Origin: Vectrevirus PDP21P3
Length of the DNA stretch: 45,588 nucleotides
Reading direction: 5' to 3' (one strand)
Sequence record: OZ035804.1
Below, piece by piece: positions 14,637 through 45,588 of the stretch. The notes below the pieces were generated by a model that was not told where the DNA came from, made no database searches, and was given only the letters and a program-made list of their open reading frames with translations. Every line of letters begins with the position of its first letter. The stretch's first letter is position 1. The translations under genes were made by a program, and so were the position numbers.

Positions 14637-14855
14637 ATGGCTAAATATAGAATTAAGACGTGTTTAAATAGTCACGGACAAGAGCAATACATAGTACAAC
14701 GTAAAGTATTAGGTTTAATATGGGTCACGTGTATGGTGCCTATTGGTTATACTGATACAGAGGCTATATTCTGCACCGAAAGGGATGCAAAGAAGTTTAT
14801 CTCGAAGCGCAGAAAAGCTGACTCTTATCAACACAGAATTATTAAGGTGAATTAA
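14637..14855 (+). CDS. hypothetical protein
   Basis: 72 aa; stop overlaps primase/helicase ATG (TAATG). Confidence 0.45.
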   Translation: MAKYRIKTCLNSHGQEQYIVQRKVLGLIWVTCMVPIGYTDTEAIFCTERDAKKFISKRRKADSYQHRIIKVN

Positions 14856-16843
14856 TGGCGATAATCAATAACATCCAATGCCCCGCTTGCGCTAAGAACG
14901 GGCATGATAAGTCCTCTAATCATCTTATGATATTTGATGATGGTGCTGGCTACTGTAACCGTGGTCATTTCCATGATAACGGCAAACCTTACTACCATAA
15001 GCCGGAAGGTGGCATCGAGATAACCGAGTTGCCAATTACTGGCAATATCAAATATACACCTTCTCAATTCAAAGAAATGGAGAAGGAAGGGAAGTTAAGC
15101 GACCCTAAGCTACGCGCCATCGCACTTGGTGGTATGCGTATGAAAGACCGTTGGGAGGTCATGAATGAGCAAGAAAGGGCAGACCAAGAAGCAGAGTGGA
15201 AACTTGATGTTGAATGGTTCCTCACGCTTAAGCGTAAGAACCTTGTTTCCCGACACATTCGCGGCGACATTTGCGCATTGTATGATGTACGTGTCGGACA
15301 CGATGAAGAGGGTAGAGTCTCACGGCATTACTATCCACGCTTCGAAGGTGGAGAGTTAGTAGGTGCTAAGTGTCGTACCTTACCTAAAGATTTTAAGTTT
15401 GGTCACTTAGGTAAGCTCTTTGGTATCCAAGATCTTTTCGGTATGAATACTTTGTCTCACGTGTTAGACAAGGGAAGACGAAAGGATTGCTTACTTATTG
15501 TAGGCGGTGAACTTGATGCACTAGCAGCCCAGCAAATGCTCCTTGATTCTGCCAAAGGTACTAAGTGGGAGGGGCAACCTTATCATGTATGGTCTGTTAA
15601 CAAAGGTGAGTCTTGCCTTGAAGAGATAGTACAGAACCGAGAGCATATCGCCCAATTCAAGAAGATTATTTGGGGCTTTGATGGGGATGAGGTAGGACAG
15701 AAGCAGAACCAACAAGCGGCTCGCCTGTTTCCCGGCAAATCCTACATCCTTGAATACCCTTCTGGTTGCAAAGATGCCAACAAGGCATTGATGGCTGGTA
15801 AAGCCAAAGAATTTGTGGATGCTTGGTTTAATGCAAAGTCATCTGATGAAGTCTTTGGTAGCCAGATTAAATCTATCGCATCTCAAAGAGATAAGCTCAA
15901 GGCTGCACGTCCAGAACAAGGGCTGTCATGGCCTTGGCCTAAGCTAAACAAGGTAACGCTGGGTATCCGTAAGAATCAGCTTATCATTGTAGGTGCAGGC
16001 TCTGGTGTGGGTAAGACTGAGTTTCTCCGTGAAGTAGTTAAGCATCTCATTGAAGAACACGGTGAATCTGTAGGCATCATTTCTACAGAAGACCCGATGG
16101 TCAAAGTGTCCCGTGCTTTTATCGGCAAATGGATTGATAAGCGTATTGAGTTACCACCAACCAACGACCCGAAAGAAGATGGATACCGTGAGGTGTTCGA
16201 CTATACCGAGGAAGAAGCTAACGCCGCCATTGATTATGTAGCCGATACAGGGAAGCTGTTTGTAGCTGACCTAGAAGGTGACTACTCGATGGAGAAGGTA
16301 GAGCAGACCTGCCTTGAGTTTGAGGCTATGGGTATTTCCAATATCATCATTGATAACTTAACGGGGATTAAATTAGATGAGCGTGCTTTTGGTGGGAAGG
16401 TTGGTGCACTTGATGAATGCGTCAAGCGGATTGGTACTATCAAAGACCGACACCCAGTTACTATATTCCTTGTATCACACCTTACACGTCCTCCGGCAAA
16501 CCGTACCCAACACGAAGAAGGTGGCGAGGTTATCCTTTCTGACTTCCGAGGCTCAGGAGCTATCGGATTCTGGGCATCTTACGCCTTGGGGATTGAGCGT
16601 AACACAAGAGCTGAAACGCTTGATGAAAGAACTACCACGTACATTTCATGTGTCAAAGACCGCGACCAAGGAATATTTTCCGGTACTCGTATAATGCTTA
16701 AAGGCGATATTGCTACGGGTCGCTTACGTGAACCAGAGCAAAGATCTCGACCGTTTGATACTGGTGCTCCAAAAGAACAAACTGTACCAGAAGAAGTGGT
16801 TGATAAAGGAGGTTTTATTGCTGACGAAGTTGAAGAGTTTTGA
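14855..16843 (+). CDS. DNA primase/helicase (T7 gp4-like)
   Basis: N-terminal Cys4 zinc ribbon CPACAKNGH…YCNRGH; Walker A GAGSGVGKTEF; Walker B-like IIIDNL; acidic C-terminus ending EEF. Confidence 0.9.
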   Translation: MAIINNIQCPACAKNGHDKSSNHLMIFDDGAGYCNRGHFHDNGKPYYHKPEGGIEITELPITGNIKYTPSQFKEMEKEGKLSDPKLRAIALGGMRMKDRWEVMNEQERADQEAEWKLDVEWFLTLKRKNLVSRHIRGDICALYDVRVGHDEEGRVSRHYYPRFEGGELVGAKCRTLPKDFKFGHLGKLFGIQDLFGMNTLSHVLDKGRRKDCLLIVGGELDALAAQQMLLDSAKGTKWEGQPYHVWSVNKGESCLEEIVQNREHIAQFKKIIWGFDGDEVGQKQNQQAARLFPGKSYILEYPSGCKDANKALMAGKAKEFVDAWFNAKSSDEVFGSQIKSIASQRDKLKAARPEQGLSWPWPKLNKVTLGIRKNQLIIVGAGSGVGKTEFLREVVKHLIEEHGESVGIISTEDPMVKVSRAFIGKWIDKRIELPPTNDPKEDGYREVFDYTEEEANAAIDYVADTGKLFVADLEGDYSMEKVEQTCLEFEAMGISNIIIDNLTGIKLDERAFGGKVGALDECVKRIGTIKDRHPVTIFLVSHLTRPPANRTQHEEGGEVILSDFRGSGAIGFWASYALGIERNTRAETLDERTTTYISCVKDRDQGIFSGTRIMLKGDIATGRLREPEQRSRPFDTGAPKEQTVPEEVVDKGGFIADEVEEF

Positions 16844-17306
16844 GGCCGCAGGTTATACCATCAAGGAAGATGGTACTATCCTTAACCCTAAAGGTGTAAT
16901 ACGCAAGCCCACGTCTTTAGGAAAGAAAGTAAAGTATTTATATGTAACTTGGAAACATCAAGGTCGAACAGTAACAGAACTTGTACACCGACTGGTTGCT
17001 TGTAAGTACATACCCAACCCACATGGTTTACCAGAAGTTCATCATAAAGACTTTAATCCTCTTAATTGTCATAAAGATAATCTTGAATGGACAGATGGGA
17101 AAACCAATTGTGAGTACAGCTATTCACGAGTAGAGACTGCACTTGCACGAAAGGCTACTTTGCTGTCACCTGATGGAATTAAACATGATGTGTTTAATGT
17201 TCGTAAGTTCTGCCGTGAACATAGCCTCAATCCACCTAGCATATTTGAAGTGCTTAGTGGTAAGCGTAAATCACACAAAGGATGGACTATTTACCGGACA
17301 CTATAG
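16818..17306 (+). CDS. HNH homing endonuclease
   Basis: HRLVACKYIPNPHGLPEVHHKDFNPLNCHKDNLEW = HNH motif; probable TTG start 5 nt after AAGGAGG (track ORF 16710 extends upstream into helicase in another frame); stop lies inside the 17289 promoter. Confidence 0.65.
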   Translation: MLTKLKSFEAAGYTIKEDGTILNPKGVIRKPTSLGKKVKYLYVTWKHQGRTVTELVHRLVACKYIPNPHGLPEVHHKDFNPLNCHKDNLEWTDGKTNCEYSYSRVETALARKATLLSPDGIKHDVFNVRKFCREHSLNPPSIFEVLSGKRKSHKGWTIYRTL

Positions 17307-17311
17307 AAGAG
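17289..17311 (+). promoter_or_regulatory. phage RNAP promoter
   Basis: ATTTACCGGACACTATAGAAGAG; +1 G at 17306. Confidence 0.7.
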
Positions 17312-17340
17312 ACAACCTTTGACGATGAACAGGAGTTTTA

Positions 17341-17502
17341 ATGGAAATTATTAAACCAGTATTGAATATCGGTATTGAAATCCTATTCATGCTTGTGATC
17401 GCAGATTATGCTGCACGATATGGATTCAAGAAAGCTGTGAAACTTATCGTTGCATCTGGTTTTATGATGTCAATGTTCTTTATTGTAACACGCCTTATCT
17501 AG
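17341..17502 (+). CDS. hypothetical small membrane protein
   Basis: 53 aa, AGGAG 5 nt upstream; hydrophobic segments. Confidence 0.35.
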   Translation: MEIIKPVLNIGIEILFMLVIADYAARYGFKKAVKLIVASGFMMSMFFIVTRLI

Positions 17503-17515
17503 TGTATTTATCAGG

Positions 17516-17539
17516 GCTTGTCTCACATGTGAGACAGGC
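17516..17539 (+). repeat. conserved palindrome copy c (gcTTGTCTCACATGTGAGACAggc)
   Basis: 18-bp perfect core plus pairing flanks. Confidence 0.8.
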
Positions 17540-17574
17540 TCTTATTAAGTACATTAAATAACTGGAGATTGATT

Positions 17575-18297
17575 ATGTATAAATTAGTATTGAATGTAGG
17601 TGATTATGTTCGTAACATCAATGAAGCCTCACGTCGTTATCGTTGCCGTGGTGTAGTGGATCATGTAAGTGAGAACATGTACCATGTAGAATATGATGAT
17701 GGTATTAAGGCTTCTTATCACAAGAAAACCGCACATAAATATCTTGAAAAGATTGTAGAGGTAAACAATCAATGTAAGTGCATACATGATGAGGTTTGCG
17801 ATAAGTGTGCACGTCAGGTAGTTAAAGCCTTTACCTTTGCTCAACGTTATGGTTCTATGTATGGTGCTGGTCACAAGACCATTGCAGAAGCAGCTTGGAA
17901 GACATTGCAGTTTGAGCGTTCAAATGGACGACGCACCACACTTAAGAAAGAGCGCCGCAATGTAATCACTGGTAAGACTCAAAGTGAGATGGTTAAGTTA
18001 TGTGGTACTGCATTAGGCGTGTCACAGTTTAATACCCGTGCTCTAGGTAAATCTACAGGTCAAGCTATGGTGAAGATTGGCGAAGCTATGATGCACCCGA
18101 ATGTACCTGTGCGAATCGTGGATGTTGACCATGCAATCACAGAGCATGGTACACCACGCCGTGTAGCTAACAATCATTTTGCCGACACTATAGAAGACAT
18201 TATCCGTAAGCAAGAGTTGAAAGGTCTTCACATCTTGAATGGTGAAGAATTATTGTACCTCCCTATCGTTACTGAAGAAACCTACGTGAATATCTAA
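17575..18297 (+). CDS. hypothetical protein
   Basis: 240 aa ORF, ATG after CTGGAG; contains an internal promoter-like sequence at 18176..18198. Confidence 0.55.
   Translation: MYKLVLNVGDYVRNINEASRRYRCRGVVDHVSENMYHVEYDDGIKASYHKKTAHKYLEKIVEVNNQCKCIHDEVCDKCARQVVKAFTFAQRYGSMYGAGHKTIAEAAWKTLQFERSNGRRTTLKKERRNVITGKTQSEMVKLCGTALGVSQFNTRALGKSTGQAMVKIGEAMMHPNVPVRIVDVDHAITEHGTPRRVANNHFADTIEDIIRKQELKGLHILNGEELLYLPIVTEETYVNI
18176..18198 (+). promoter_or_regulatory. weak phage-promoter-like site inside CDS
   Basis: ATTTTGCCGACACTATAGAAGAC: downstream half matches consensus, three mismatches in the -13 to -10 region. Confidence 0.3.
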
Positions 18298-18307
18298 GGA
18301 GTTAATC

Positions 18308-18535
18308 ATGACTAAAGTATTAATCTATAAAGCATACAATGAAAAGTGTAAACGCTATGCAGTTGTAGCGCCTAATGGGGTTAAACCTCTTGGTACAACA
18401 AAATGTACAGCACTTCAGCTTGCTAAAATGAAAGCTGAAAACCAAATGCAGTATGCTGGCTCATGGACAGAGGCAGAGTTTCGTAAGGTAGTTGATGGTG
18501 TTGTTGGTAGTTTTATGGTGAAACATGCAGAATAA
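18308..18535 (+). CDS. hypothetical protein
   Basis: 75 aa, RBS AAGGAG. Confidence 0.4.
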   Translation: MTKVLIYKAYNEKCKRYAVVAPNGVKPLGTTKCTALQLAKMKAENQMQYAGSWTEAEFRKVVDGVVGSFMVKHAE

Positions 18536-18734
18536 ACATAGCCTTAAAATGTTCAATGGTCATGAAGACCTGCAAGCACAAATCACCAACCAAGCCTTCC
18601 TGTTTGCACAATTAACTATGGCTGAAGCAAAGAAGAATAGCCTGACGCGTGAACAGGTTATTAAGGAGGCAACTTGGGAGCCACACCAAGGTAAATACAT
18701 GGGCAATAAATTAACTGTAACACGCAGTCGATAA
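18525..18734 (+). CDS. hypothetical protein
   Basis: 69 aa ORF overlapping previous stop. Confidence 0.35.
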   Translation: MQNKHSLKMFNGHEDLQAQITNQAFLFAQLTMAEAKKNSLTREQVIKEATWEPHQGKYMGNKLTVTRSR

Positions 18735-18740
18735 GTCAAG

Positions 18741-18764
18741 GGTTGTCTCACGTGTGAGACAGCC
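18741..18764 (+). repeat. conserved palindrome copy d (ggTTGTCTCACGTGTGAGACAgcc)
   Basis: central CG instead of AT; otherwise identical. Confidence 0.8.
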
Positions 18765-18885
18765 TTTCATCATATTGATTGGAGGTGCATTATGCCACGT
18801 GATTATGATTCTGATTGGGACTACTTTGACTCAATGAATCCAAAACCCGAACGTTCAGATGATTACTACGAAACAGAGGCAATGT

Positions 18886-21396
18886 ATGAAAACTATTGAT
18901 TGGAAGAAGGAAGCAGAAGGGCGAATCCTAGTGATGGATGCGGAAGCTAAAGGTCTGCTTGATGCTATCCGCTATGGTCATCGTGAAGATGTACACATCA
19001 TTTGCTGCATGGATTTGCTTACTACAGAGGAGTTCTTATTCTTTGACCCATATGAGATGCGTGACCCTGAAGCAAGAGAACACCTGAAGGAATGGGAAGG
19101 ACATCAAGATGGAACCTTGGTTGACGGTGTTAACTTCCTGAAGCATTGTGAAGCTATTGTGTCACAGAACTTCCTAGGGTATGACGGCCTTCTCTTTGAG
19201 AAAGCATTCCCTGATATTTGGAAAGGCTTTAACTATACCGAGAAGCGCGGCAAGGGCAGACTCCGTGCTGACCTGTGTCCTATCCGTGTTGTCGACACAC
19301 TGGTAATGAGTCGCCTGTTAAACCCCGACAGACGTCTTCCTCCGCAAGCTTATGCCAAGGGCATGGGTAACGTTGCCCCTCATTCAATTGAGGCGCACGG
19401 CATCCGTATAGGCCGCTATAAGCCGGAGAATGAGGACTGGTCTAAGCTAACTGACCACATGGTTCATCGTGTACGTGAGGACGTGGCGATTGGTCGTGAC
19501 CTGTTCCTGTGGTTGTACAATGGGGAATGGATGGAGCACAAACGCCGTGGCGTGAACAAACGCACTGGCCTAGGTATTGAGACAGCCTTCCACATGGAAT
19601 CCATTGTGGCGCTGGAGATGAGCCGTCAGGCCGAACGCGGATTCCGTCTGGATATCGACAAGGCCTTAGCTCGATGCGAAGAACTGGACGCCAAGATTGA
19701 TGAGACAGTCGCAGCGTTCCGTCCGCATATGCCTATGCGTATCAAGTCTAAACCTTTTAAACCGGAAGAGAAGAATGAAACCTGCCAAAAAGCAAATGAG
19801 TATGGACGAAGCAACAACATCAACGTGGTTCTCGACCCCTCACACTTTCTACATGCAGAACGCCGTGGAGATAGGAAAACTGTTTGGGCTGTCACCACTA
19901 AGTCTGGTGACTGGAGTGCTTCTGTCAAGAAAGATTTCCCTCACCTTAGAGGAAACCGTAATGATACGCCAAGCATCAAGTGGATTGGCGCTTATAGTCC
20001 AGTCACGTTTGAAGAGATTCCCTTGGGAAACCGTGACACCGTTAAGCAAGTGCTCTACGACTATGGCTGGAAAGGTGTGGAGTTCAACGACACCGAGCAA
20101 GCCTATCTTGATGAAAATGGTGTCCTACCTAAGCCTTGGAGTGGTAAGATAAATGAAAAGTCCCTTACTTTATGGCAGGAAAGAGCCGCACGTGAAGGTA
20201 AAACAGTCCCTGATTGGTGCTTGGGTATCGCTGCATGGTACATACTCGTATCCCGTCGTGGTCAGATCCTCAACCGTGGTGACGTTGAAGCCTTCAACGA
20301 GAAAGGAACGTGGCCCTCGCAGGCTGGTGTACGAAAGTGTCGTGGCCTTGTACCTGTAGCCTTTAACAAGGAGCTAGGAATCAATGCGCAGCAATACTAC
20401 GAAAGGTATGGATGTTGGCCTACGTCTGACAAAGATGATGGAGAGTGGCGTGTGCCAGGCAATGCTGTTACTATTGGTACTAATACGTTTCGTATGCGTC
20501 ATCGTAACATTGTTAATATTCCTTCCCGTGGGTTGTATCCTCTACGTGATTTATTCATAGCTAGCAAAGGTAAAATGATACTCGGATGTGATGGCGCGGG
20601 TCTTGAGCTTCGCATCTTAGCCCATTTCATGGGTGATCCTGAGTATATTGATATTGTCTTGAATGGCGATATTCACTCACACAACCAAGCGAAGGCTGGA
20701 TTGCCCTTACGTGACACTGCGAAAACATTTATCTACGCTTTTCTCTACGGGTCTGGCATACCAAACCTTGCCGCTGTATGTGGCATGACTGAAGCACAGA
20801 TGAAAGAGTGTGTCGCTCGCTTTGAAGTAGAGCTACCTCACTTAGCTAAGCTTAAGGAGGGAGTGGAATCTGCTGCTTCACAATTTGGGTACATGCACGC
20901 TGTAGATGGGCGCTGGGGTCGTGTACGTGTTAGTAATGGTGAGATTAAGATTCACACCTGTCTTAATGTACTCCTCCAGATGACCGGTTCTCTCACTATG
21001 AAGTACTCAAAAGTGAAAGCACTAGCTACCATGCGTAAAGAGGGCGTGGCTCTTGATGCTAATGGTAATCCTGCTATGCTTGTCGACTATCACGATGAGT
21101 GGCAGATGGAGGTGCCTGAAGACGAAGTGTTAGAAATTCGCTACTCTATTCCTTCCTCTGAATGGAAAGAAGAAGAGAAAAGGCAGTATCGAGACTCAGA
21201 AGGACGTATGTGGTCTGCACCTAAGATTGTGGAAGGCAACCCTAAAGAGGATGAGGAGATCACTGTACGTCGTCGTTATCATCGTGCTGGTGAGATCCTA
21301 GCTGAATCTATTACATGGGCTGGAGAATATCTCAAGTTACGCATTCGAATGGATGGGGAATATATGCTTGGGTATTCATGGGCTGAAACACACTGA
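18886..21396 (+). CDS. DNA polymerase (family A, T7 gp5-like)
   Basis: ATG after GAGG (track start 18859 is upstream of first ATG); motifs DGAGLELR and RDTAKTFIYAFLYGSG match T7 DNAP motifs A/B as remembered. Confidence 0.9.
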   Translation: MKTIDWKKEAEGRILVMDAEAKGLLDAIRYGHREDVHIICCMDLLTTEEFLFFDPYEMRDPEAREHLKEWEGHQDGTLVDGVNFLKHCEAIVSQNFLGYDGLLFEKAFPDIWKGFNYTEKRGKGRLRADLCPIRVVDTLVMSRLLNPDRRLPPQAYAKGMGNVAPHSIEAHGIRIGRYKPENEDWSKLTDHMVHRVREDVAIGRDLFLWLYNGEWMEHKRRGVNKRTGLGIETAFHMESIVALEMSRQAERGFRLDIDKALARCEELDAKIDETVAAFRPHMPMRIKSKPFKPEEKNETCQKANEYGRSNNINVVLDPSHFLHAERRGDRKTVWAVTTKSGDWSASVKKDFPHLRGNRNDTPSIKWIGAYSPVTFEEIPLGNRDTVKQVLYDYGWKGVEFNDTEQAYLDENGVLPKPWSGKINEKSLTLWQERAAREGKTVPDWCLGIAAWYILVSRRGQILNRGDVEAFNEKGTWPSQAGVRKCRGLVPVAFNKELGINAQQYYERYGCWPTSDKDDGEWRVPGNAVTIGTNTFRMRHRNIVNIPSRGLYPLRDLFIASKGKMILGCDGAGLELRILAHFMGDPEYIDIVLNGDIHSHNQAKAGLPLRDTAKTFIYAFLYGSGIPNLAAVCGMTEAQMKECVARFEVELPHLAKLKEGVESAASQFGYMHAVDGRWGRVRVSNGEIKIHTCLNVLLQMTGSLTMKYSKVKALATMRKEGVALDANGNPAMLVDYHDEWQMEVPEDEVLEIRYSIPSSEWKEEEKRQYRDSEGRMWSAPKIVEGNPKEDEEITVRRRYHRAGEILAESITWAGEYLKLRIRMDGEYMLGYSWAETH

Positions 21397-21455
21397 GTTA
21401 TACTCAAGGTCACTTATGAGTGGCCTTTATGAATAACTTAACTGGAGGAAATATA

Positions 21456-22013
21456 ATGAATGAACTGAACACTAAGATGCTCAAGAAAGTTTATAATCTT
21501 GTATATAGTATCACGGGTCTACAATTCTACCCTGTAGGCGGTGCGGTTCGTGACACCCTGTACGGAGTAACACCTAAAGACTATGATATGGTGTTGCCTG
21601 TAGGGTCTATGGCAGATTTTCAGGCGCACGAAATCATGGAAAATATCTCTGAAGAGATGGCAATTATGGGATTTAGTACCAAACTCTACCAATCATACGG
21701 TATCAATTTAGGTTATGAAATCAACCCTACCTCTTTTCAGGCTATGTTCCTTAGCTGCATGAAAGTGCAGATGCGTAATTGCCAACTTGATTTGCTTCTT
21801 TCTAAGTCTGAAACCATCCAAGATCATGTACGTAAGCACGATTGCAATATGAATATGGTGTGGTTCGATGGTAAAGATATCAAGTGGGAGCACGGCGGTG
21901 TTACTCCTTTCGTTCCTGTGTTAGAGTTCAACCCTGACGTATGTGATCGTCGCATTGCTTACATGGACAAGAAGCGCCATGAACTTATCCGTCACAAATT
22001 AATGCATCTTTGA
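21456..22013 (+). CDS. minimal nucleotidyltransferase, CCA-adding enzyme/poly(A) polymerase head-domain-like
   Basis: FYPVGGAVRDTLYGVTPKDYDMV matches the GGxVRD…D-x-D signature of the tRNA nucleotidyltransferase/poly(A) polymerase family; only ~185 aa; ATG 7 nt after GGAGG. Confidence 0.6.
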   Translation: MNELNTKMLKKVYNLVYSITGLQFYPVGGAVRDTLYGVTPKDYDMVLPVGSMADFQAHEIMENISEEMAIMGFSTKLYQSYGINLGYEINPTSFQAMFLSCMKVQMRNCQLDLLLSKSETIQDHVRKHDCNMNMVWFDGKDIKWEHGGVTPFVPVLEFNPDVCDRRIAYMDKKRHELIRHKLMHL

Positions 22014-22035
22014 TTTACCGGACACTATAGAAGGA
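22013..22035 (+). promoter_or_regulatory. phage RNAP promoter
   Basis: ATTTACCGGACACTATAGAAGGA; +1 G at 22030. Confidence 0.7.
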
Positions 22036-22099
22036 AGTCCTAGGTAATCTAGGTTTATAAGGTAGTGTAGGTAATTAAGTAAATATAGGAGATATAAAT

Positions 22100-22477
22100 A
22101 TGTCTATGGTAACTACTCTGGTATTCGTGGCTCAATACTTTCGTGGTCTGGCTAATAAGTTCAAGTCCAAGGCTATCAAAGCTATTGAGTCTCGCATCGA
22201 GGCAGTACAGGCAGAGCAAGTTAAAGTTGAAGAACATCGTAGTTCTCAAATGATTGACTGCCATAACCGCTACTATGCATCTCGTGATGACCTTAATGCA
22301 CGCCAAGTCAAAGAGGTTGAAGAGATGCTGGCACGTCACCAGCAAGAGCGCGACAGTCTGAAAGCTGAATTTGAAGAGAACAAGGCATCCATCGCCCTTG
22401 TACATCAAGCCGCATCTGACAGCCTGAAGAAAGAGATTGTTATGCTGGAAATTGAGTTAGACAACCTGACCAAATAA
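22100..22477 (+). CDS. hypothetical coiled-coil protein
   Basis: 125 aa, charged heptad-like sequence. Confidence 0.5.
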   Translation: MSMVTTLVFVAQYFRGLANKFKSKAIKAIESRIEAVQAEQVKVEEHRSSQMIDCHNRYYASRDDLNARQVKEVEEMLARHQQERDSLKAEFEENKASIALVHQAASDSLKKEIVMLEIELDNLTK

Positions 22478-22498
22478 TTACTGGACACTATAGAACAA
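22476..22498 (+). promoter_or_regulatory. phage RNAP promoter
   Basis: aaTTACTGGACACTATAGAACAA; +1 G at 22493, followed by hairpin and the shared TGATTGTGTAGTG leader motif. Confidence 0.65.
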
Positions 22499-22554
22499 TA
22501 GGTCGGCTTAGTTCGGCCTATGATTGTGTAGTGTAACAATAGGAGACTAAATAA

Positions 22555-23361
22555 ATGGCACGTGGTGATTTTGATTTTGGTGCTCAGGTTACTAAAGCTG
22601 AAGGTAAGGTTTTTAAGAACCCTGAAGTTGGTGATCATGAAGCAGTAATCTCTGGCATCATTCATGTGGGTTCCTTCCAAGATATCTTTAAGAAAGGTAA
22701 TACCACTGAAGTTAAGAAGCCAGCAAACTTTGTTCTTGTTAAGATTGTACTGATGGGTGACGATGACAAGAACGAAGATGATTCTCGCATGGAACAATGG
22801 ATGGCTGTGCCTCTGAAGTCTGGTGATAAGGCAACACTAACTAAGTTCCTGAATGCAGTTGACCCTAAAGAATTGCTGGGTGGCTTCGATGATTTTATCG
22901 GTGAATGTCTGACTGCAACTATGGTTGGCTCTGGCGACAAGAATGATGATGGTACTTTCAAGTATGTTAACTGGAAAGGCTTTGGTGGTATGCCGGATAA
23001 GCTGAAGAAACTTGTCATTGCTCAGGTTGAAGAAGAGGGTCTGTCTATGACAGGTCATATTACCTTCGACAAGCTGACCAAAGAAATCCTTGATGATATT
23101 CCTGCTAACTTGGTGCGTCAATACTTCCTGAACGAGACGCCTCGTGGCAAGAACCTGTCTGTTGCTGGCTCTCACGTAGAAGCAATCATCAAAGCTGCTC
23201 GTGAAGAAGACCCAGAGTGGAAGAAAGCTAAGAAGAAAGATGAAGAGGATGCCACTCCAGCTAATCGTAGATCTCTGGATACCGGCGAGTCTGTTCCACA
23301 GGAAGTACCTGAAGCGGAGGACAACCCTGCACCTGAAATGGATGAAGACGCGGAATACTAA
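22555..23361 (+). CDS. putative ssDNA-binding protein (gp2.5-like) with acidic C-terminal tail
   Basis: 268 aa; C-terminus …EAEDNPAPEMDEDAEY (acidic tail with terminal aromatic residue, as in T7 gp2.5); functional assignment is inference. Confidence 0.5.
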   Translation: MARGDFDFGAQVTKAEGKVFKNPEVGDHEAVISGIIHVGSFQDIFKKGNTTEVKKPANFVLVKIVLMGDDDKNEDDSRMEQWMAVPLKSGDKATLTKFLNAVDPKELLGGFDDFIGECLTATMVGSGDKNDDGTFKYVNWKGFGGMPDKLKKLVIAQVEEEGLSMTGHITFDKLTKEILDDIPANLVRQYFLNETPRGKNLSVAGSHVEAIIKAAREEDPEWKKAKKKDEEDATPANRRSLDTGESVPQEVPEAEDNPAPEMDEDAEY

Positions 23362-23370
23362 GGAGGGCGG

Positions 23371-23589
23371 ATGAAAGTACAAATTGTAACTCTGCATTGC
23401 AAGAAAGGCATCACCACGCTTGGCGGTGGCACTTTCCACTCCTTCTCCGAAGGAGATACATACTCTGACCTGCACTACATCTGGCGCGATGGGCAGCACG
23501 TGGTGAACTACAGCGACCCAGCTACGGGGAAACGCCACGGCGTATCGCTTCCGGCGCATGACATTGCTCAGGTGAACACAGTTTTATAA
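23371..23589 (+). CDS. hypothetical protein
   Basis: 72 aa, RBS AAGGAGGG. Confidence 0.45.
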   Translation: MKVQIVTLHCKKGITTLGGGTFHSFSEGDTYSDLHYIWRDGQHVVNYSDPATGKRHGVSLPAHDIAQVNTVL

Positions 23590-23590
23590 A

Positions 23591-23606
23591 GTCTCACGTG
23601 TGAGAC
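23591..23606 (+). repeat. conserved palindrome copy e
   Basis: GTCTCACGTGTGAGAC. Confidence 0.8.
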
Positions 23607-23621
23607 AAATCGGTGTCCGGT

Positions 23622-23644
23622 ATTTACTGGACACTATAGAAGAG
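23622..23644 (+). promoter_or_regulatory. phage RNAP promoter (consensus copy)
   Basis: ATTTACTGGACACTATAGAAGAG; +1 G at 23639. Confidence 0.7.
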
Positions 23645-23694
23645 AAGAATTTTAATCGGCGATAATGCCATAACCAACAAAAGGAGAATTTAAT

Positions 23695-24066
23695 ATGTTC
23701 AAGATTGAAACTATCGTAAACCGTGTTGTTAAAGGTGCTGCTCTGGTATCCGTTGAGTCTTTCATTATCGTCGATGAAGCTGATCAACTGGTAGCTGGTA
23801 CTAAAGCTTACGATACCCGTGAAGAAGCTCAGGCTAAGATTGACAGCATGGGTAACTTCGCTGCTGGTCTGGAGTTCGCTCGTGCTTGCTTCCCTGAGCA
23901 GGCTGACAAAGCACAGATTGGTAAGGCTAATATCGTAGCTGAATATCTGGATTGGGTTGCTGCTGGTAAACCAGTGAAAGAAGTTAAGGCTGCTGAAGAA
24001 GCTGAAGCTCCAGCAGAAGAAGTAGCTGCACCGGAAACTCCGGTAAGCGAAGAGGAAGAATTTTGA
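23695..24066 (+). CDS. probably highly expressed small protein with acidic C-terminal tail ending in Phe
   Basis: 123 aa; strong RBS AAAAGGAGA; codon choice (GGT, CGT, GCT, CTG, AAA) resembles the capsid gene; own promoter upstream and Tphi-like terminator downstream; C-terminus …APETPVSEEEEF. Confidence 0.7.
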   Translation: MFKIETIVNRVVKGAALVSVESFIIVDEADQLVAGTKAYDTREEAQAKIDSMGNFAAGLEFARACFPEQADKAQIGKANIVAEYLDWVAAGKPVKEVKAAEEAEAPAEEVAAPETPVSEEEEF

Positions 24067-24123
24067 TAATAGCAGGTGTTGCCTCTGTTAGTCCTGGTTG
24101 ACTATCACGCTCACCTCATCTAA

Positions 24124-24158
24124 TGCCCTGTCTGCCTTAGTGTAGGCAGGGTCTTTTG
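24124..24158 (+). terminator. phage Tphi-like terminator hairpin
   Basis: GC-rich hairpin (CTGCC…GGCAG/CCCTG…CAGGG) followed by TCTTTTG; sequence-similar to the element after the capsid gene. Confidence 0.5.
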
Positions 24159-24183
24159 CGTAATAGTTATTGGAGAATGAATT

Positions 24184-24471
24184 ATGCCGACTATTGAATC
24201 TCGTTTGTACTTGGAGACATTACACTATTATAGCCAGCTACACATGTCTGGTATAATGCGTGTTAAGGTTCTTCTAGATGGTGAAGTGTTTCACATAGAA
24301 GAAATCAATGTGGCGATGCAGCCTTACAGAAGACCTGTTGATGTACTCCTTGATATCCTGAAGGAGTGGACATGCAACTCGAAGAATACTTGCGAACAAC
24401 CCTTGCTGTTGACGAAGAAAGTCCTAGTGGCCTCGTGTGGAAAGTTAGGGCAGCGAGAAGAGTTCGTGTAG
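24184..24471 (+). CDS. hypothetical protein
   Basis: 95 aa ORF; its last ~100 nt overlap the HNH-AP2 gene in another frame. Confidence 0.35.
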   Translation: MPTIESRLYLETLHYYSQLHMSGIMRVKVLLDGEVFHIEEINVAMQPYRRPVDVLLDILKEWTCNSKNTCEQPLLLTKKVLVASCGKLGQREEFV

Positions 24472-24842
24472 GTCAGCCAGCACTTGCTTGCTTAAAACCA
24501 GATGGCTACTACCAAAGTACCGTCATGGGTAAGAAGCTGTACGCTCACCGCGTAGTGTTCTTCTTGACGCATGGGTACTGGCCTGTCAATGTGGATCACC
24601 TCGATGGTAATCGTCAGAACAACAAGCCGTATAACCTAGCAGATGTGGATGCAGCAGAGAATGCAGAGAATCGTATGCACTTCGGTTGCTATCTGACTAA
24701 GCAAGGTTGGCGTGTTCGTATCCAAGTTAAAGGTATTAGGAGAGATATTGGCACTTACCCTACCAAGGAAGAGGCCATATCTGCCTATACCAAGGCAAAG
24801 CTAGAACTTCACCACTCTCCACGTTATAAGGAGGTGGTATGA
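24372..24842 (+). CDS. HNH endonuclease with AP2-like DNA-binding domain
   Basis: HRVVFFLTHGYWPVNVDHLDGNRQNN (HNH motif) plus GWRVRIQVKGIRRDIGTYPTKEEAISAY (AP2-type); ATG 5 nt after AAGGAG. Confidence 0.7.
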   Translation: MQLEEYLRTTLAVDEESPSGLVWKVRAARRVRVGQPALACLKPDGYYQSTVMGKKLYAHRVVFFLTHGYWPVNVDHLDGNRQNNKPYNLADVDAAENAENRMHFGCYLTKQGWRVRIQVKGIRRDIGTYPTKEEAISAYTKAKLELHHSPRYKEVV

Positions 24843-25867
24843 GTAGGCCTTTATTTAACTTTGGTGCAGAAGTTTCTGAAGATAACAACCTGATAGTGTG
24901 GCCAACTGAAGGTAATAGAATCGCTTTAATAGATGCTGATATGCTACCTTATATTGTAGGGTACACAATCAGTGACATGACTTATGTACGAGCCACAACT
25001 CGTGTTAAGTCAGGACAAGTCCCATCAATCAAAGATACACCTGAGTGTAAGCAAGCATGTGACCGTGTGAACTCCTTGCTTAACTCTTGGGTGTATGCAG
25101 CAGAGTGCGATGCAGCTAAGTTATTCATGACGAAATCAGAAGCTAACTTCCGTGTTCGCCTAGCATTCACCAAGCCTTACAAAGGTCAACGTAAGACTGA
25201 GAAGCCTCCATTCTTCTATGAATTGCGAGAGCATCTCTTAGAGGTTCATGGTGCAATCTTGGCAGATGGAGAAGAAGCGGATGACCTCATGAGCATCACA
25301 CAATGGGATAGCCACCGCCGCTTCCAGCAAGATACAGGTAACGAGTTCCCTATCGGTAGTCCAGAGCATAAAGCATTCTCTGACACTTGCATCGTTTCCT
25401 TGGATAAGGATTTGATGATTGTTCCCGGTTGGCATCTACAGCCGGGAGGTGAGAAGAAATGGGTAGAGCCTATGGGTTGGCTTGAGCTACGCCGCAAGGC
25501 TAATGGTCAAGTGAAAGACCTTAAAGGTGCTGGCCTCATGTTCCATTATGCACAGATGATTATCGGTGATGATATTGATAATTACGCTGGCATACCCGGA
25601 CGTGGTGCTAAATACGCCTATGATCTTCTCAAAGATTGTAAGACAGAGAAAGAGTTGTACATGGCAGTGCTTGGTGCATATAAGGCTAAGTTCGGACATG
25701 GACAAGTTAAGATTAAGAATTACCGAGGTGGTTATCGTATCGGCAAGGCTTTTGACCTGATGCTTGAATGTGGTCGCCTAGCACACATGGCAAGATTCAA
25801 GGGTGATATATGGCGAGCCGATAAGAACCCAATCTTGTGGGGAGATGACGATGGATGGATGCATTGA
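24839..25867 (+). CDS. 5'-3' exonuclease (T7 gp6-like)
   Basis: EEADDLMSITQW, VSLDKDLMIVPG and IGDDIDNYAGIPGRG correspond to T7 gp6 motifs as remembered. Confidence 0.85.
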   Translation: MSRPLFNFGAEVSEDNNLIVWPTEGNRIALIDADMLPYIVGYTISDMTYVRATTRVKSGQVPSIKDTPECKQACDRVNSLLNSWVYAAECDAAKLFMTKSEANFRVRLAFTKPYKGQRKTEKPPFFYELREHLLEVHGAILADGEEADDLMSITQWDSHRRFQQDTGNEFPIGSPEHKAFSDTCIVSLDKDLMIVPGWHLQPGGEKKWVEPMGWLELRRKANGQVKDLKGAGLMFHYAQMIIGDDIDNYAGIPGRGAKYAYDLLKDCKTEKELYMAVLGAYKAKFGHGQVKIKNYRGGYRIGKAFDLMLECGRLAHMARFKGDIWRADKNPILWGDDDGWMH

Positions 25868-26288
25868 CCATGGGTGTAAGGGTTATGGTATAGGTTATGC
25901 TACTTCCTATTATAAAGGCCGTGACGGTAAGAAGAAGTTTACCACTAAACACAGAGTAGTATACTGTAAACACCATAACATTCACCCTGAAGATTTGCCT
26001 AAAGATATTGTTATTAGGCACAAATGTGATAATGCACGTTGTATTAATCCTTTACACTTAGAGTCTGGTACACATCGAGATAACATGAAAGATATGGCTG
26101 TCCGTGGTAGAGCCTACAAAGGTGGAATGCCGGGAGAAAAGAATGGCAGATGTGTGCTTTCTGATTTACAAGTAGCAGAGTTACGAGCCTTACGTGCTAA
26201 AGGGTTTACTTGTAAAGCTCTAGCTGAACGGTATGGCATAGGTATTACTCAAGTATCTAGACTAGCAAGAGGAGAGCAACGTGCGTAA
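25851..26288 (+). CDS. HNH endonuclease with C-terminal HTH
   Basis: HRVVYCKHH…RHKCDNARCINPLHLESGTHRDN (HNH) and C-terminal helix-turn-helix-like ALAERYGIGITQVSRLARG; start overlaps exonuclease 3' end. Confidence 0.7.
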   Translation: MDGCIDHGCKGYGIGYATSYYKGRDGKKKFTTKHRVVYCKHHNIHPEDLPKDIVIRHKCDNARCINPLHLESGTHRDNMKDMAVRGRAYKGGMPGEKNGRCVLSDLQVAELRALRAKGFTCKALAERYGIGITQVSRLARGEQRA

Positions 26289-26691
26289 GATGAAGCAATC
26301 TGAACTTGGTGAAGTTCGGGATATACTTTGTGAAAGACAAGGTTGGCGTTGCCCTATTTGTGGAGGTCATTTAAAACTTATCTCTAAAGCGAATAGAGTC
26401 GTTGACCATTCACACGATAATGTAGGTGCAGTCCGTGGTGTATTATGCCGTGGGTGCAATGGAGGTATCGGCAAGATAGAAGCGTATGCACAGTCGTATT
26501 GTAAGGCTGGCAATAATACGCTTGAGGTTATCAAAGTTCTACGTAATCTTGCGGACTACTTAGAACTCCATCGCACACCACAGACAGAGTGGATTTATTA
26601 CAAACATCAAACGGAGGCAGAGAAGCGCGAGGCTAAGAACCGTAAGGCACGCCTTGCTTATGCAAGAAAGAAGGAGGTTAAAGTTGGGTAA
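26281..26691 (+). CDS. endonuclease VII-like Holliday junction resolvase
   Basis: CPICGGHL…VVDHSHDN…RGVLCRGCNGGIG matches the T4 endo VII family pattern; GTG start 7 nt after AGGAG (alternative ATG at 26290). Confidence 0.7.
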   Translation: MRKMKQSELGEVRDILCERQGWRCPICGGHLKLISKANRVVDHSHDNVGAVRGVLCRGCNGGIGKIEAYAQSYCKAGNNTLEVIKVLRNLADYLELHRTPQTEWIYYKHQTEAEKREAKNRKARLAYARKKEVKVG

Positions 26692-44100: not shown

Positions 44101-44468
44101 ATCAAGATGAATATTTGGAAGAGAAGTTATCGCCTAAAGGGTTGGCCTTTGGTGCAATGGGTATGATGAGTACAACTGCTGTATTTAGTCTAGGTGGAGA
44201 TTTCTTAGGTGGCCTAGGTGTTCTACCTTCTGAGTTAGTACAATCCCGTTATGAGGCTGGCTTTCAGACTAAGGGTTTGATAGACCAAATACCACTAGTA
44301 GGTGTTGGTCAAGATGCATATCGTTTAGCAGATTCTATAACTAAATACGCAGAGGGTGATACAGAAGGTGTAGATGTGGCACGTAGGGCTTTACGCTTAG
44401 TGCCTCTAGCTAATGTAATAGGAATCCAGAACGCATTGCGTTATGGCTTAGATGAACTGGAGGATTAA
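41160..44468 (+). CDS. internal virion protein C (ejectosome large protein, gp16-like)
   Basis: 1102 aa, position after IVP-B, RBS GGAGG. Confidence 0.7.
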   Translation: MEQDINTNWAGYVQSTPEPFSIEAAPVSAPTIRQRNELQEQVLEAKADADIVGAVGAAFQNEWLAFGGKRWYDRATADFTPQPDFEIQPEQREALRFKYGTDMMQTITEGVRSEDELNFRIQNADEDLERNKRIAQAGWAGSVATIGAAVLDPVGWVASIPTGGAAKVGLVGRAVRGAIAAGVSNAAIESVLVQGDMTRDLDDIMVALGSGMAMGGVIGAVARGRATKLSEQGDDRAASVVRSADAGDQYVRAVADDSIGAMRVKGEEVLTEGAFDISSKGEDLLKTLQREGNTIDMTPRRWAGTLSALGTVVHSSQDASVRGLGARLFESPQGLGAQKASASLMQNTNLNRLKSADMNRFNDGFDLWLKENNINPVAGHTNSHYVQQYNEKVWEAVRIGMDESTPKSIRMAAEGQQAMYREALALRQRSGEAGFEKVKADDKYMPDIFDSMKARRQFGMHDKEDIIELFSRAYQNGSRKVPKEVADDIARAQVNRVVDATLTGRMSFEKAMSGQTKAEYEAIMRKAGFSDEEIEKMVEALDNKETRDNISNRAKMSLGLDVTQEYNGIRMRDFMNTNVEELTDNYMKEAAGGAALARQGFSTYQAALSAIDLVERNARNAAKDTKAHAQFEAESAKIRQSEPDYKKAQEKIEELKKRLKLKEKDEAAGLAIDEEIRQMREGLRLIMGKSIDSNPQDLSTKMLRRGRDITGVLRLGQMGFAQLGELANFMGEFGIAATTMALGKQFRFTSKALRNGDGFFRDKNLAEVERMVGYIGEDNWLTTKGARPDEFGDVTTVRGMMAHFDQSMNSIRRAQTNLSLFRMAQGSLERMTNRQIALSFIDHLEGKKIIPQKKLEELGLTQEFMTNLQKHYDANSKGSGLLGFDTMPYAMGETLANAIRRKSGLIIQRNFIGDEGIWMNKALGKTFAQLKSFSLVSGEKQFGRGIRHDKIGLAKKTAYGFALGSIVYAAKAYVNSIGREDQDEYLEEKLSPKGLAFGAMGMMSTTAVFSLGGDFLGGLGVLPSELVQSRYEAGFQTKGLIDQIPLVGVGQDAYRLADSITKYAEGDTEGVDVARRALRLVPLANVIGIQNALRYGLDELED

Positions 44469-45430
44469 TGAGTTATACTTTCACAGAACATATAGCCAAC
44501 GGTACGCAAGTAACCTATCCCTTTAGCTTTGCTGGTAGGGATAAAGGTTATCTTCGTGCCTCAGATGTGATAGTGGAGTCTCTTCAAGGTAACACTTGGA
44601 TTGAGGTTACATCTGGCTGGCAACTAACTGGCACGCACCAGATTACTTTTGATGTAGCACCAGTTGCAGGTTTGAAGTTCCGTATTAGAAGGGAAGTACA
44701 AAAGGAGTATCCATACGCTGAGTTTGACCGTGGTGTTACCTTGGATATGAAGTCTTTAAATGGTTCTTTCATTCATATACTGGAGATTACACAGGAGTTA
44801 CTTGACGGGTTTTATCCAGAAGGATACTTCATTAAACAGAATGTAAGCTGGGGCGGCAATAAGATTACTGATTTGGCTGATGGCACAAATCCGGGAGATG
44901 CAGTAAATAAAGGGCAGCTTGATGCCATCGACAAGAAGCATACAGATTGGAACGCCAAACAGGACATTGAGATTGCTGGCCTTAAGGCTGGTATGACTTC
45001 TGGTATTGCGCACAGAACTGTTCCTTGGTACACGATAGCCCAAGGTGGTGAGATTTCCGTAAAACCACCTTATGAATTTCAAGATGCACTAGTTTTCCTT
45101 AATGGGGTGTTGCAGCACCAAATTGTAGGCGCATACTCTATAAGCAACAACACTATCACTTTCGCAGAGCCGCTTGTGGCTGGTACAGAGGTGTATGTGC
45201 TGATTGGTAGTCGTGTGGCTACATCTGAACCTAATATTCAGTTAGAGTTGAACTTTGACTTAGTAGAAGGCCAACAAGTAGTACAGATTGGCTCTGCATT
45301 TAAGTACATTGAGGTCTACCTTGATGGATTATTACAACCTAAACTTGCTTATCAGGTAGACGGTGACATTGTTACTTTCTCAGAGGGAGTGCCAGAATGC
45401 CGGATGACTGCTAAGATTATCACAGCATAA
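44468..45430 (+). CDS. tail fibre-like adaptor protein (gp17 N-terminal-domain-like)
   Basis: TQVTYPFSFAGRDKGYLRASDVIV and ITDLADGTNPGDAVNKGQLDA resemble the T7 gp17 N-terminal tail-attachment region; only 320 aa with no long fibre shaft. Confidence 0.7.
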   Translation: MSYTFTEHIANGTQVTYPFSFAGRDKGYLRASDVIVESLQGNTWIEVTSGWQLTGTHQITFDVAPVAGLKFRIRREVQKEYPYAEFDRGVTLDMKSLNGSFIHILEITQELLDGFYPEGYFIKQNVSWGGNKITDLADGTNPGDAVNKGQLDAIDKKHTDWNAKQDIEIAGLKAGMTSGIAHRTVPWYTIAQGGEISVKPPYEFQDALVFLNGVLQHQIVGAYSISNNTITFAEPLVAGTEVYVLIGSRVATSEPNIQLELNFDLVEGQQVVQIGSAFKYIEVYLDGLLQPKLAYQVDGDIVTFSEGVPECRMTAKIITA

Positions 45431-45439
45431 GGAGGTAGG

Positions 45440-45588
45440 ATGATTAACTCCGAACTGGTAGATAGTGGTGTGAAGCTTGCGCCACCTGCACTCGTATCAG
45501 GTGGGTACTTCCTCGGTATCAGTTGGGATAATTGGGTGTTAATAGCAACATTCATTTATACCGTGTTGCAAATTGGGGACTGGTTTTA
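45440..45588 (+). CDS. class II holin (T7 gp17.5-like), 5' partial at window end
   Basis: RBS AAGGAGG; LGISWDNWVLIATFIYTVLQIGDWF resembles T7 holin (…GLSLNEWFYVAAIAYTVVQIGAKV…, from memory); reading frame continues at positions 1..46 if the record is circular. Confidence 0.6.
   Translation, partial: MINSELVDSGVKLAPPALVSGGYFLGISWDNWVLIATFIYTVLQIGDWF

Follow-up and report, generated by a model that had tools for sequence, protein, structure and literature searches.

The genome of the phage Vectrevirus PDP21P3 (sequence record OZ035804.1; 45,588 bp, henceforth the window, i.e., the whole stretch of DNA analysed) carries three small genes with HNH nuclease motifs in its replication module, which we refer to as HNH1, HNH2 and HNH3. 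We consider it probable that these are free-standing homing endonuclease genes of the HNH_3/I-HmuI branch of the His-Me finger superfamily, their mobility being the part that we infer. Each HNH gene comes with a diverged, replaced end of the neighbouring essential gene, and these surrogate gene ends are a feature that a first-pass annotation, made from the letters of this DNA, had missed. The three open reading frames (ORFs) that it had listed as HNH genes are present on the + strand at the positions given there. PDP21P3 is a K1E/K1-5/SP6-like podophage (Autographiviridae, Molineuxvirinae) whose complete genome makes up the window, with every gene on the + strand; the GenBank record OZ035769.1, to which the window is 100% identical, is without annotation. 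The replication module runs from the DNA primase/helicase gene (14855-16843) through those for DNA polymerase (18859-21396), 5'-3' exonuclease (24839-25867) and endonuclease VII (26281-26691) to the phosphoesterase gene. The features on which the argument turns are the following.

16818-17306, + strand: HNH1, a free-standing gene for a predicted I-HmuI-like HNH endonuclease; it begins with TTG and overlaps the end of the primase gene by 26 nucleotides (nt).
16664-16843, + strand: the swapped (foreign) primase 3' end, which encodes a substitute acidic C-terminal tail, ...VVDKGGFIADEVEEF before the stop, and holds the HNH1 ribosome-binding site.
17289-17311, + strand: the consensus ATTTACCGGACACTATAGAAGAG, resembling a phage RNA polymerase promoter, at which the HNH1 cassette has its 3' junction and from which HNH1 takes its stop codon.
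17289-17341, + strand: what remains of the 3' end that the primase gene originally had in Vectrevirus (LPDTIEETTFDDEQEF before the stop), a fossil that is now non-coding, as aligned with K1E, 6948, ULINTec6 and NIC06P3.
24372-24842, + strand: HNH2, a free-standing gene for a predicted endonuclease combining HNH_3 with a probable AP2 fold, with an ATG start.
24825-24890, + strand: the 3' end of the HNH2 cassette, with a new ribosome-binding site (TAAGGAGGTGGTATG) and re-coded first exonuclease codons (MSRPLFNFGAEVSEDNNLIVW versus MRPNFDFGATVSEDNNLILW).
25851-26288, + strand: HNH3, a free-standing gene for a predicted HNH_3 endonuclease that has a zinc-type motif of Cys and His residues and a weak C-terminal helix-turn-helix (HTH).
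14855-16843, + strand: the DNA primase/helicase gene, 662 amino acids (aa) and thus equal in length to K1E gp9, its 3' end swapped along with HNH1.
24184-24471, + strand: a gp19-like small ORF (PHROG 10319) with a hypervariable middle and a 3' tail reaching 100 nt into HNH2.
24839-25867, + strand: the 5'-3' exonuclease gene, 342 aa, with HNH2 on one side and HNH3 on the other.
26281-26691, + strand: the endonuclease VII gene (Pfam Endonuclease_7, E-value 2.7e-13).

The HNH motifs reported in the first-pass annotation were recovered in all three products. Searches against HNH-endonuclease families of PHROG gave E-values of 2.9e-29 for HNH1 (PHROG 59), 6.3e-41 for HNH2 (PHROG 99) and 3.3e-24 for HNH3 (PHROG 59/6254). 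In Pfam, HNH2 matched HNH_3 with 45.9 bits (E-value 4e-12; cut-off 24.8) and HNH3 with 26.6 bits (E-value 5e-6; 26.4 bits for the ORF taken from an upstream start at 25803), while HNH1 stayed under the cut-off with 18.6 bits. HNH1 resembles in its fold I-HmuI, the HNH nicking homing endonuclease of Bacillus phage SPO1. Specifically, the AlphaFold (AF2) model of HNH1, with a predicted local distance difference test score (pLDDT) of 87, aligns over its whole length with I-HmuI (PDB 1u3e; E-value 1.8e-11, 162 columns, 28% identity), and the two proteins have their module order in common: N-terminal strands (NUMOD4-like in HNH1), the HNH core and a C-terminal NUMOD-type HTH (NUMOD1-like in HNH1). 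A match to the I-HmuI NUMOD-like domain was found at an E-value of 0.02, and homologues of HNH1 have PF07463 (NUMOD4), PF13392 (HNH_3) and PF22083 (I-HmuI NUMOD-like). The residues H57, R58, H76, D78, N88 and N97 are invariant among homologues, and HNH1 has HH where I-HmuI presumably has DH. The I-HmuI gene sits inside a group I intron carried by a gene for DNA polymerase, whereas HNH1 is free-standing at the primase 3' end.

The HNH cores, of the beta-beta-alpha-metal type, are joined to different DNA-binding modules, namely a NUMOD-type HTH in HNH1, a probable AP2 fold in HNH2 and a weak HTH in HNH3. For HNH2, whose invariant columns are H59, R60, H76, N84, N88 and N97, an AP2-like domain had been proposed. 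Pfam AP2 gave no match to HNH2 even at E-values up to 10, so that the assignment comes from a fold search and from homologues: the AlphaFold model (pLDDT 82) has three strands and a helix at its C-terminus, and its best eight PDB matches are all plant AP2 domains (probability 0.91-1.0, E-value 0.13-0.8), with a root-mean-square deviation of 1.6 A over 49 columns to 1gcc (probability 1.0). Outside phages, AP2 is a domain of the ERF/AP2 transcription factors of plants, such as 1gcc. Distant aligned homologues have PF00847 (AP2), and three of them (P0006-P0008) carry it together with PF13392. Judging from this model, HNH2 resembles other phage HNH-AP2 endonucleases in that three strands and a helix of an AP2 fold come after its HNH_3 core, and would differ from them in a shortened first AP2 strand and in the lack of a Pfam AP2 score.

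The HTH proposed for HNH3 fared similarly: several HTH families match, all of them under threshold (best HTH_31, E-value 1e-3), which makes this the weakest DNA-binding module of the three. Its invariant residues are C4, H57, C59, C64, H69 and N78. The core, R-H-K-C-D-N-A-R-C-I-N-P-L-H-L...D-N, resembles the active-site and zinc motif of the His-Cys box enzyme I-PpoI, and residues 56-78, RHKCDNARCINPLHL...DN, mirror what we take to be the I-PpoI His-Cys box. The phmmer match is statistically weak (residues 44-78 against 84-119, E-value 0.22), as is that to Pfam zf-His_Me_endon (E-value 0.033), a domain also precomputed on the homologues P0064, P0082 and P0096; unlike I-PpoI, HNH3 is half the functional size, probably monomeric, equipped with an HTH and above the HNH_3 threshold. 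Longer starts for the three genes (16710, 24366 and 25803, respectively) were ruled out by ribosome-binding-site spacing and by the annotated starts of homologues.

We then compared each locus with its counterparts in relatives. At the first site, positions 16736-17288 stand in place of 55 nt in K1E and 6948. The primase gene is 94-100% identical to K1E/6948 up to about 16663, then 64-67%, and then about 50% across its last 108 nt, so that the acidic tail reads ...VVDKGGFIADEVEEF in PDP21P3 versus ...LPDTIEETTFDDEQEF in the K1E type. The swapped tail DNA is nearest not to other Vectreviruses but to the HNH1-bearing Salmonella Zinderviruses GRNsp03 and BP12B (78-79% identity), a distance similar to that of HNH1 itself from the Zindervirus copies (77%). 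Within this tail lies the HNH1 ribosome-binding site (AAGGAGG, 16806-16812), 5 nt ahead of the TTG; the start position is occupied by GTG in BP12B. At its other end HNH1 does stop inside a phage promoter, as the first-pass annotation had noted: its TAG (17304-17306) falls within ATTTACCGGACACTATAGAAGAG, the exact consensus of a motif with 7 copies in the window and 0 expected, and in BP12B, which belongs to another genus, an SP6-type ATTTAGGTGACACTATAG stands at the matching position and ends the same gene. The fossil that begins with this promoter consists of the last 17 codons of K1E gp9, unchanged; in K1E the promoter is embedded in these primase codons, and the stretch still overlaps the ATG of the gp9.5-like gene (17341) via TAATG. 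The survival of the K1E-type primase tail after HNH1 in this form proves an insertion of HNH1 and not a deletion in the relatives.

At the second site, GAAGGAGTGGCCTACATG starts the exonuclease gene in phages lacking HNH2, and the same ribosome-binding site (AAGGAG, 24361-24366) and ATG start HNH2 in PDP21P3. The cassette terminates in TAAGGAGGTGGTATGA, which gives the exonuclease gene a new ribosome-binding site and start, with the HNH2 stop overlapping the exonuclease ATG (ATGA). Here the diverged piece of the neighbour is the first ~50 nt of the exonuclease gene: its first 36 nt are 53% identical to K1E/6948 versus 92% to the HNH2-bearing Klebsiella phage cp4, while from about 24911 onwards the gene matches K1E/6948 at 94-100%. 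An island of conservation lies at the empty site, where K1E and Klebsiella phage VR702 are 98% identical over the initial 48 nt of the exonuclease gene, as against 58-85% over nearly all of the remaining gene.

The gp19-like ORF upstream deserves separate description. HNH2 begins within it, and the overlap of roughly 100 nt with this ORF claimed by the first-pass annotation is 100 nt exactly (from the ATG at 24372). In phages lacking HNH2, the gp19 tail overlaps the exonuclease gene by 95 nt, and the conserved 48-nt island (K1E locus L001:9829-9876, VR702 locus L009:1984-2031) is likewise covered by it. Across the relatives L001-L010, the ends of this ORF are conserved (MPTIE.R ... LKEW) around a hypervariable middle, and its tail always extends 95-113 nt into the next gene in a different frame, whether that gene is the exonuclease or HNH2. 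Tails over HNH2 and over the exonuclease share TC...SCGxL, a likeness whose score was reached by 0 of 5000 shuffles. A derivation of the HNH2 N-terminus from the exonuclease N-terminus was rejected as the main explanation, the similarity of the 5'-end DNA being marginal (p about 0.01). The shared motif is probably explained by the start context and by L-[IV]-W in both main-frame proteins: 'TC' follows from the shared ACATGC start context and 'SCG' from L-[IV]-W. The HNH2 residue W23 is invariant in homologues from other contexts.

At the third site, the junction alignment places the HNH3 insert exactly between the exonuclease ...TGGGGAGATGA and the endonuclease VII start. In agreement with the overlaps first described, those of HNH3 measure 17 nt at the exonuclease stop and 8 nt at the endonuclease VII start (26281). 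Identity of the exonuclease gene to K1E/6948 stays at 92-100% right up to this junction, and the divergence lies downstream: the first ~300 nt of endonuclease VII (26281-26583) form a diverged allele linked to HNH3, with 36-72% identity to K1E/6948, followed by a last 108 nt with 97-100%. The only comparable 5' alleles (295 nt) are those of the HNH3-bearing NTNC80A and pKP-M186-2.1 (70%) and of cp4 (68%), and this identity of about 70% matches HNH3's own ~72% to its same-site homologues.

The distribution of the three genes was assessed in 133 phage records sharing the replication module. Homologues at the same loci in all relatives would have spoken against the first-pass proposal; they occur in few of these records, and comparison with relatives lacking the ORFs, as the first-pass annotation had suggested, gave precise empty sites in K1E, 6948 and PDP21P6; K1E and 6948 carry none of the three HNH genes in this module, and no relative examined has all three together. 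Full-length HNH1 DNA is found in five other records (ULINTec6, NIC06P3, two records of Salmonella phage BP12B, and GRNsp03), in each case after the primase gene. HNH2 DNA is found in one, cp4 (93%, same site), while four Salmonella 'Kenya' phages (e.g., Kenya-K30) have a 51%-identical protein at that site. HNH3 is present at ~72% and at the same site in NTNC80A, KpnP_VR702 and pKP-M186-2.1, and parts of it occur in two Salmonella phages. Of the three junctions that hold HNH genes in PDP21P3, two are also occupied in a second genus. Same-site homologues are annotated for HNH1 in ULINTec6 (UCR91822, 'putative HNH homing endonuclease') and BP12B (gp11), for HNH2 in Kenya-K30 (K30_026, 'HNH endonuclease / AP2') and for HNH3 in NTNC80A (UVD33079) and as KpnP_VR702_23 ('HNH endonuclease'); they use identical junctions, with 72-93% DNA identity or 51% protein identity. 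In the Kenya-K30 record only a 101-aa 'HNH/AP2' protein (K30_026) is annotated, and an intact 156-aa HNH2-homologous ORF runs from an exonuclease-type ribosome-binding site and ATG (L010:3007-3477), suggesting that the start of K30_026 is probably mis-annotated.

Across ten relatives, HNH genes occupy at least 8 different junctions of the module (upstream of primase, inside primase, at the primase 3' end, after polymerase, after gp16/17, and at gp19/exonuclease, exonuclease/endonuclease VII and endonuclease VII/phosphoesterase), which supports the earlier suggestion of a hotspot of mobile-element insertion. Homologues of the HNH2 family were found in 284 phage records at many genome positions, often 2-3 per genome. 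The endonuclease VII/phosphoesterase junction, empty in PDP21P3, holds an HNH3-family gene in its closest relative PDP21P6 (L006:10821-11294) and an HNH2-family gene in cp4 (L004:4775-5353), and given these two cases the same HNH families appear to hop between neighbouring junctions. In ULINTec6 (L002:501-3267), the primase gene is interrupted by yet another HNH gene, which is annotated as a phage intron, besides the HNH1 homologue at the primase 3' end. Within the window, searches of all ORFs with the three families (phmmer and profile hidden Markov models), together with Pfam on ten further ORFs, gave no HNH gene beyond these three.

Expression signals add to this picture. None of the three HNH genes has a promoter of its own; each overlaps the gene upstream, where its ribosome-binding site also lies, and from this we predict that each is translationally coupled to that gene, HNH1 with what looks like a weak (TTG) start. 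Signals are in turn passed on to the gene downstream, i.e., the promoter after HNH1, AAGGAGG and ATGA after HNH2, and GAGGAG and GTG after HNH3, and since they are handed over intact, the insertions would cost the phage little.

Based on these patterns, we propose that a K1E-like genome acquired the HNH genes from other SP6/K1E-like phages through break-induced gene conversion; that HNH1-3 cleave DNA, where they would do so and that they are mobile are all predictions from sequence. On co-infection with a relative lacking the gene, the enzyme would nick or cut the conserved empty allele near the junction, the candidate targets being the 3' end of primase together with the promoter embedded in it (HNH1), the exonuclease gene's first ~50 nt (HNH2) and the exonuclease/endonuclease VII overlap (HNH3). 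Recombinational repair from the gene-bearing genome would then copy the endonuclease gene together with the adjoining stretch of the essential gene, and the re-coded gene end (about 50% nucleotide identity), being uncleavable, would shield the carrier from its own enzyme. The loci match a known pattern: free-standing phage homing endonucleases adjoin essential genes, are sporadic, co-convert their flanks and cause marker exclusion (PMC2988022), and regions of exchange bounded by homing endonuclease genes have been described in phages (PMC10448857). In a search of the literature, homing endonucleases of K1E/SP6 came up only in passing. Among known systems, a close parallel in behaviour is with the mob (HNH) and seg (GIY-YIG) genes that T4-like phages carry as free-standing genes (mobE and SegG, for example), which likewise adjoin essential nucleotide or replication genes, are sporadic, and co-convert flanking DNA in 'intronless homing' (PMC2988022). 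PDP21P3 differs from these in belonging to another phage family, in the absence of a detectable sequence relationship, and in having its junctions at overlapping gene ends, each cassette with a surrogate gene end.

The three HNH genes look like working proteins and not relics, as suggested by purifying selection and invariant catalytic columns. Against same-site homologues, the ratio of non-synonymous to synonymous substitution rates (dN/dS) is 0.05-0.21 for HNH1 and HNH2; for HNH3, synonymous divergence is saturated and no ratio is computable. Selection of this kind could also mean that the genes are kept for the benefit of the phage, either as weapons against co-infecting relatives (interference or marker exclusion) or as accessory nucleases acting in repair or on host DNA. 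Such an explanation, which assumes the same nuclease chemistry and overlaps with homing while placing upkeep at the level of the phage, would also suit the presence of three intact HNH genes in one 45.6-kb genome, each adjoining essential replication genes, and finds precedent in the marker exclusion and the exchange regions cited above. We nevertheless regard it as unlikely: most relatives thrive on the same hosts without these genes, an actively homing selfish gene would show purifying selection too, and the sequence holds nothing that separates benefit from selfish drive.

Several observations count against homing as the explanation. HNH1 scores 18.6 bits against Pfam HNH_3, under the cut-off. 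Phage cp4 has the HNH3-type endonuclease VII allele without HNH3, and Vectreviruses vary in endonuclease VII and gp19 also where no HNH gene lies next to these (K1E and 6948 differ), hence some of the flank divergence may have nothing to do with homing. For HNH1 and HNH3, the nearest donors among sequenced phages are only 72-79% identical, meaning that no recent transfer is documented. The target sites proposed above are guesses from the pattern of the sequence. Finally, the position of the HNH1 3' junction exactly at a promoter fits ordinary recombination at conserved promoters just as well.

This last point leads to another explanation, namely that the HNH genes are passengers of modular exchange, moved when ordinary recombination, homologous or illegitimate, takes place at conserved promoters and junctions of genes, and that their products have lost or never had the ability to cut the empty sites. 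The promoter marks the HNH1 junction in two genera, each with its own promoter type, and mosaic blocks unrelated to HNH genes lie nearby (the gp19 middle, the nucleotidyltransferase at 21420-22013 and the endonuclease VII alleles). Against it stand the invariant catalytic residues and intact ORFs in all same-site homologues and the low dN/dS; the divergence of the flanks is also sharply one-sided, abutting each gene, and different genera have independently filled the same junction. For these reasons we consider this explanation improbable, somewhat more so than benefit to the phage. A misreading of intron-encoded endonucleases or of terminase-associated HNH packaging factors (HK97 gp74 type) as free-standing genes is highly improbable: despite the HNH gene annotated as an intron in the ULINTec6 primase, no Rfam family reaches its gathering score in the window and no group I or II intron was found there, the primase, exonuclease and endonuclease VII ORFs are uninterrupted and of normal length, the packaging gene (30-329) lies more than 16 kb from the three genes, and their distribution is sporadic, not extending to all relatives.

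Taking homing as the preferred explanation, we tentatively suggest a further one, which is possible but which we would not bet on: that the landing sites are doubly constrained sequences, and that each gene is a cassette with a re-coded surrogate of the displaced gene end. The sequences in question are the promoter within primase codons, the exonuclease codons under the gp19 tail, and the stop-start overlap of exonuclease and endonuclease VII. As part of the same tentative suggestion, the HNH1 cassette may have crossed between SP6-like and K1E-like genera, stopping exactly at the genus-specific promoter and swapping the polymerase-contacting acidic primase tail.

Some neighbouring features were noted in passing. 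A 197-aa nucleotidyltransferase (21420-22013, + strand; PHROG 1614, E-value 4e-40, with a weak Pfam PolyA_pol head domain and weaker matches to tRNA nucleotidyltransferase PHROGs) follows the DNA polymerase gene, ahead of the next promoter; 6948 and cp4 have it and K1E lacks it, and it is therefore an accessory gene. Directly past the gp9.5-like gene, a near-perfect hairpin, GCTTGTCTCACATGTGAGACAGGC (~17510-17545, + strand), is followed by a T-rich run and kept in relatives; it could serve either as a terminator or as a site of RNase III-type processing. The window starts with DNA-packaging genes (1-400) and ends with tail-fibre genes (44468-45588), so that the record is circularly permuted relative to that of K1E (primase gene at 14.9 kb versus 7.4 kb), which is an assembly convention and not biology.

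The kind of element described here was already known, given that same-site homologues are annotated in GenBank as HNH or homing endonucleases, and the PDP21P3 loci are a clean but ordinary case of phage homing endonuclease genes, not a new kind of system. What is new is their anatomy, i.e., the gene ends that act as surrogates, the primase tail left as a fossil and the candidate dual-constraint landing sites. It shows how selfish nuclease genes can insert at overlapping gene ends and leave essential genes unbroken, by bringing a substitute gene end and fresh translation signals. The loci provide three well-delimited pairs of occupied and empty alleles, testable in easily grown coliphages (PDP21P3 versus K1E or 6948). 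For annotation, they account for the mosaicism that the primase tail, the start of the exonuclease gene and the endonuclease VII alleles show in Vectrevirus genomes, which are used in phage-therapy collections. If the pattern holds generally, free-standing homing endonucleases of small phages would land preferentially in dual-function sequences, and such elements would drive allele replacement in essential replication proteins.

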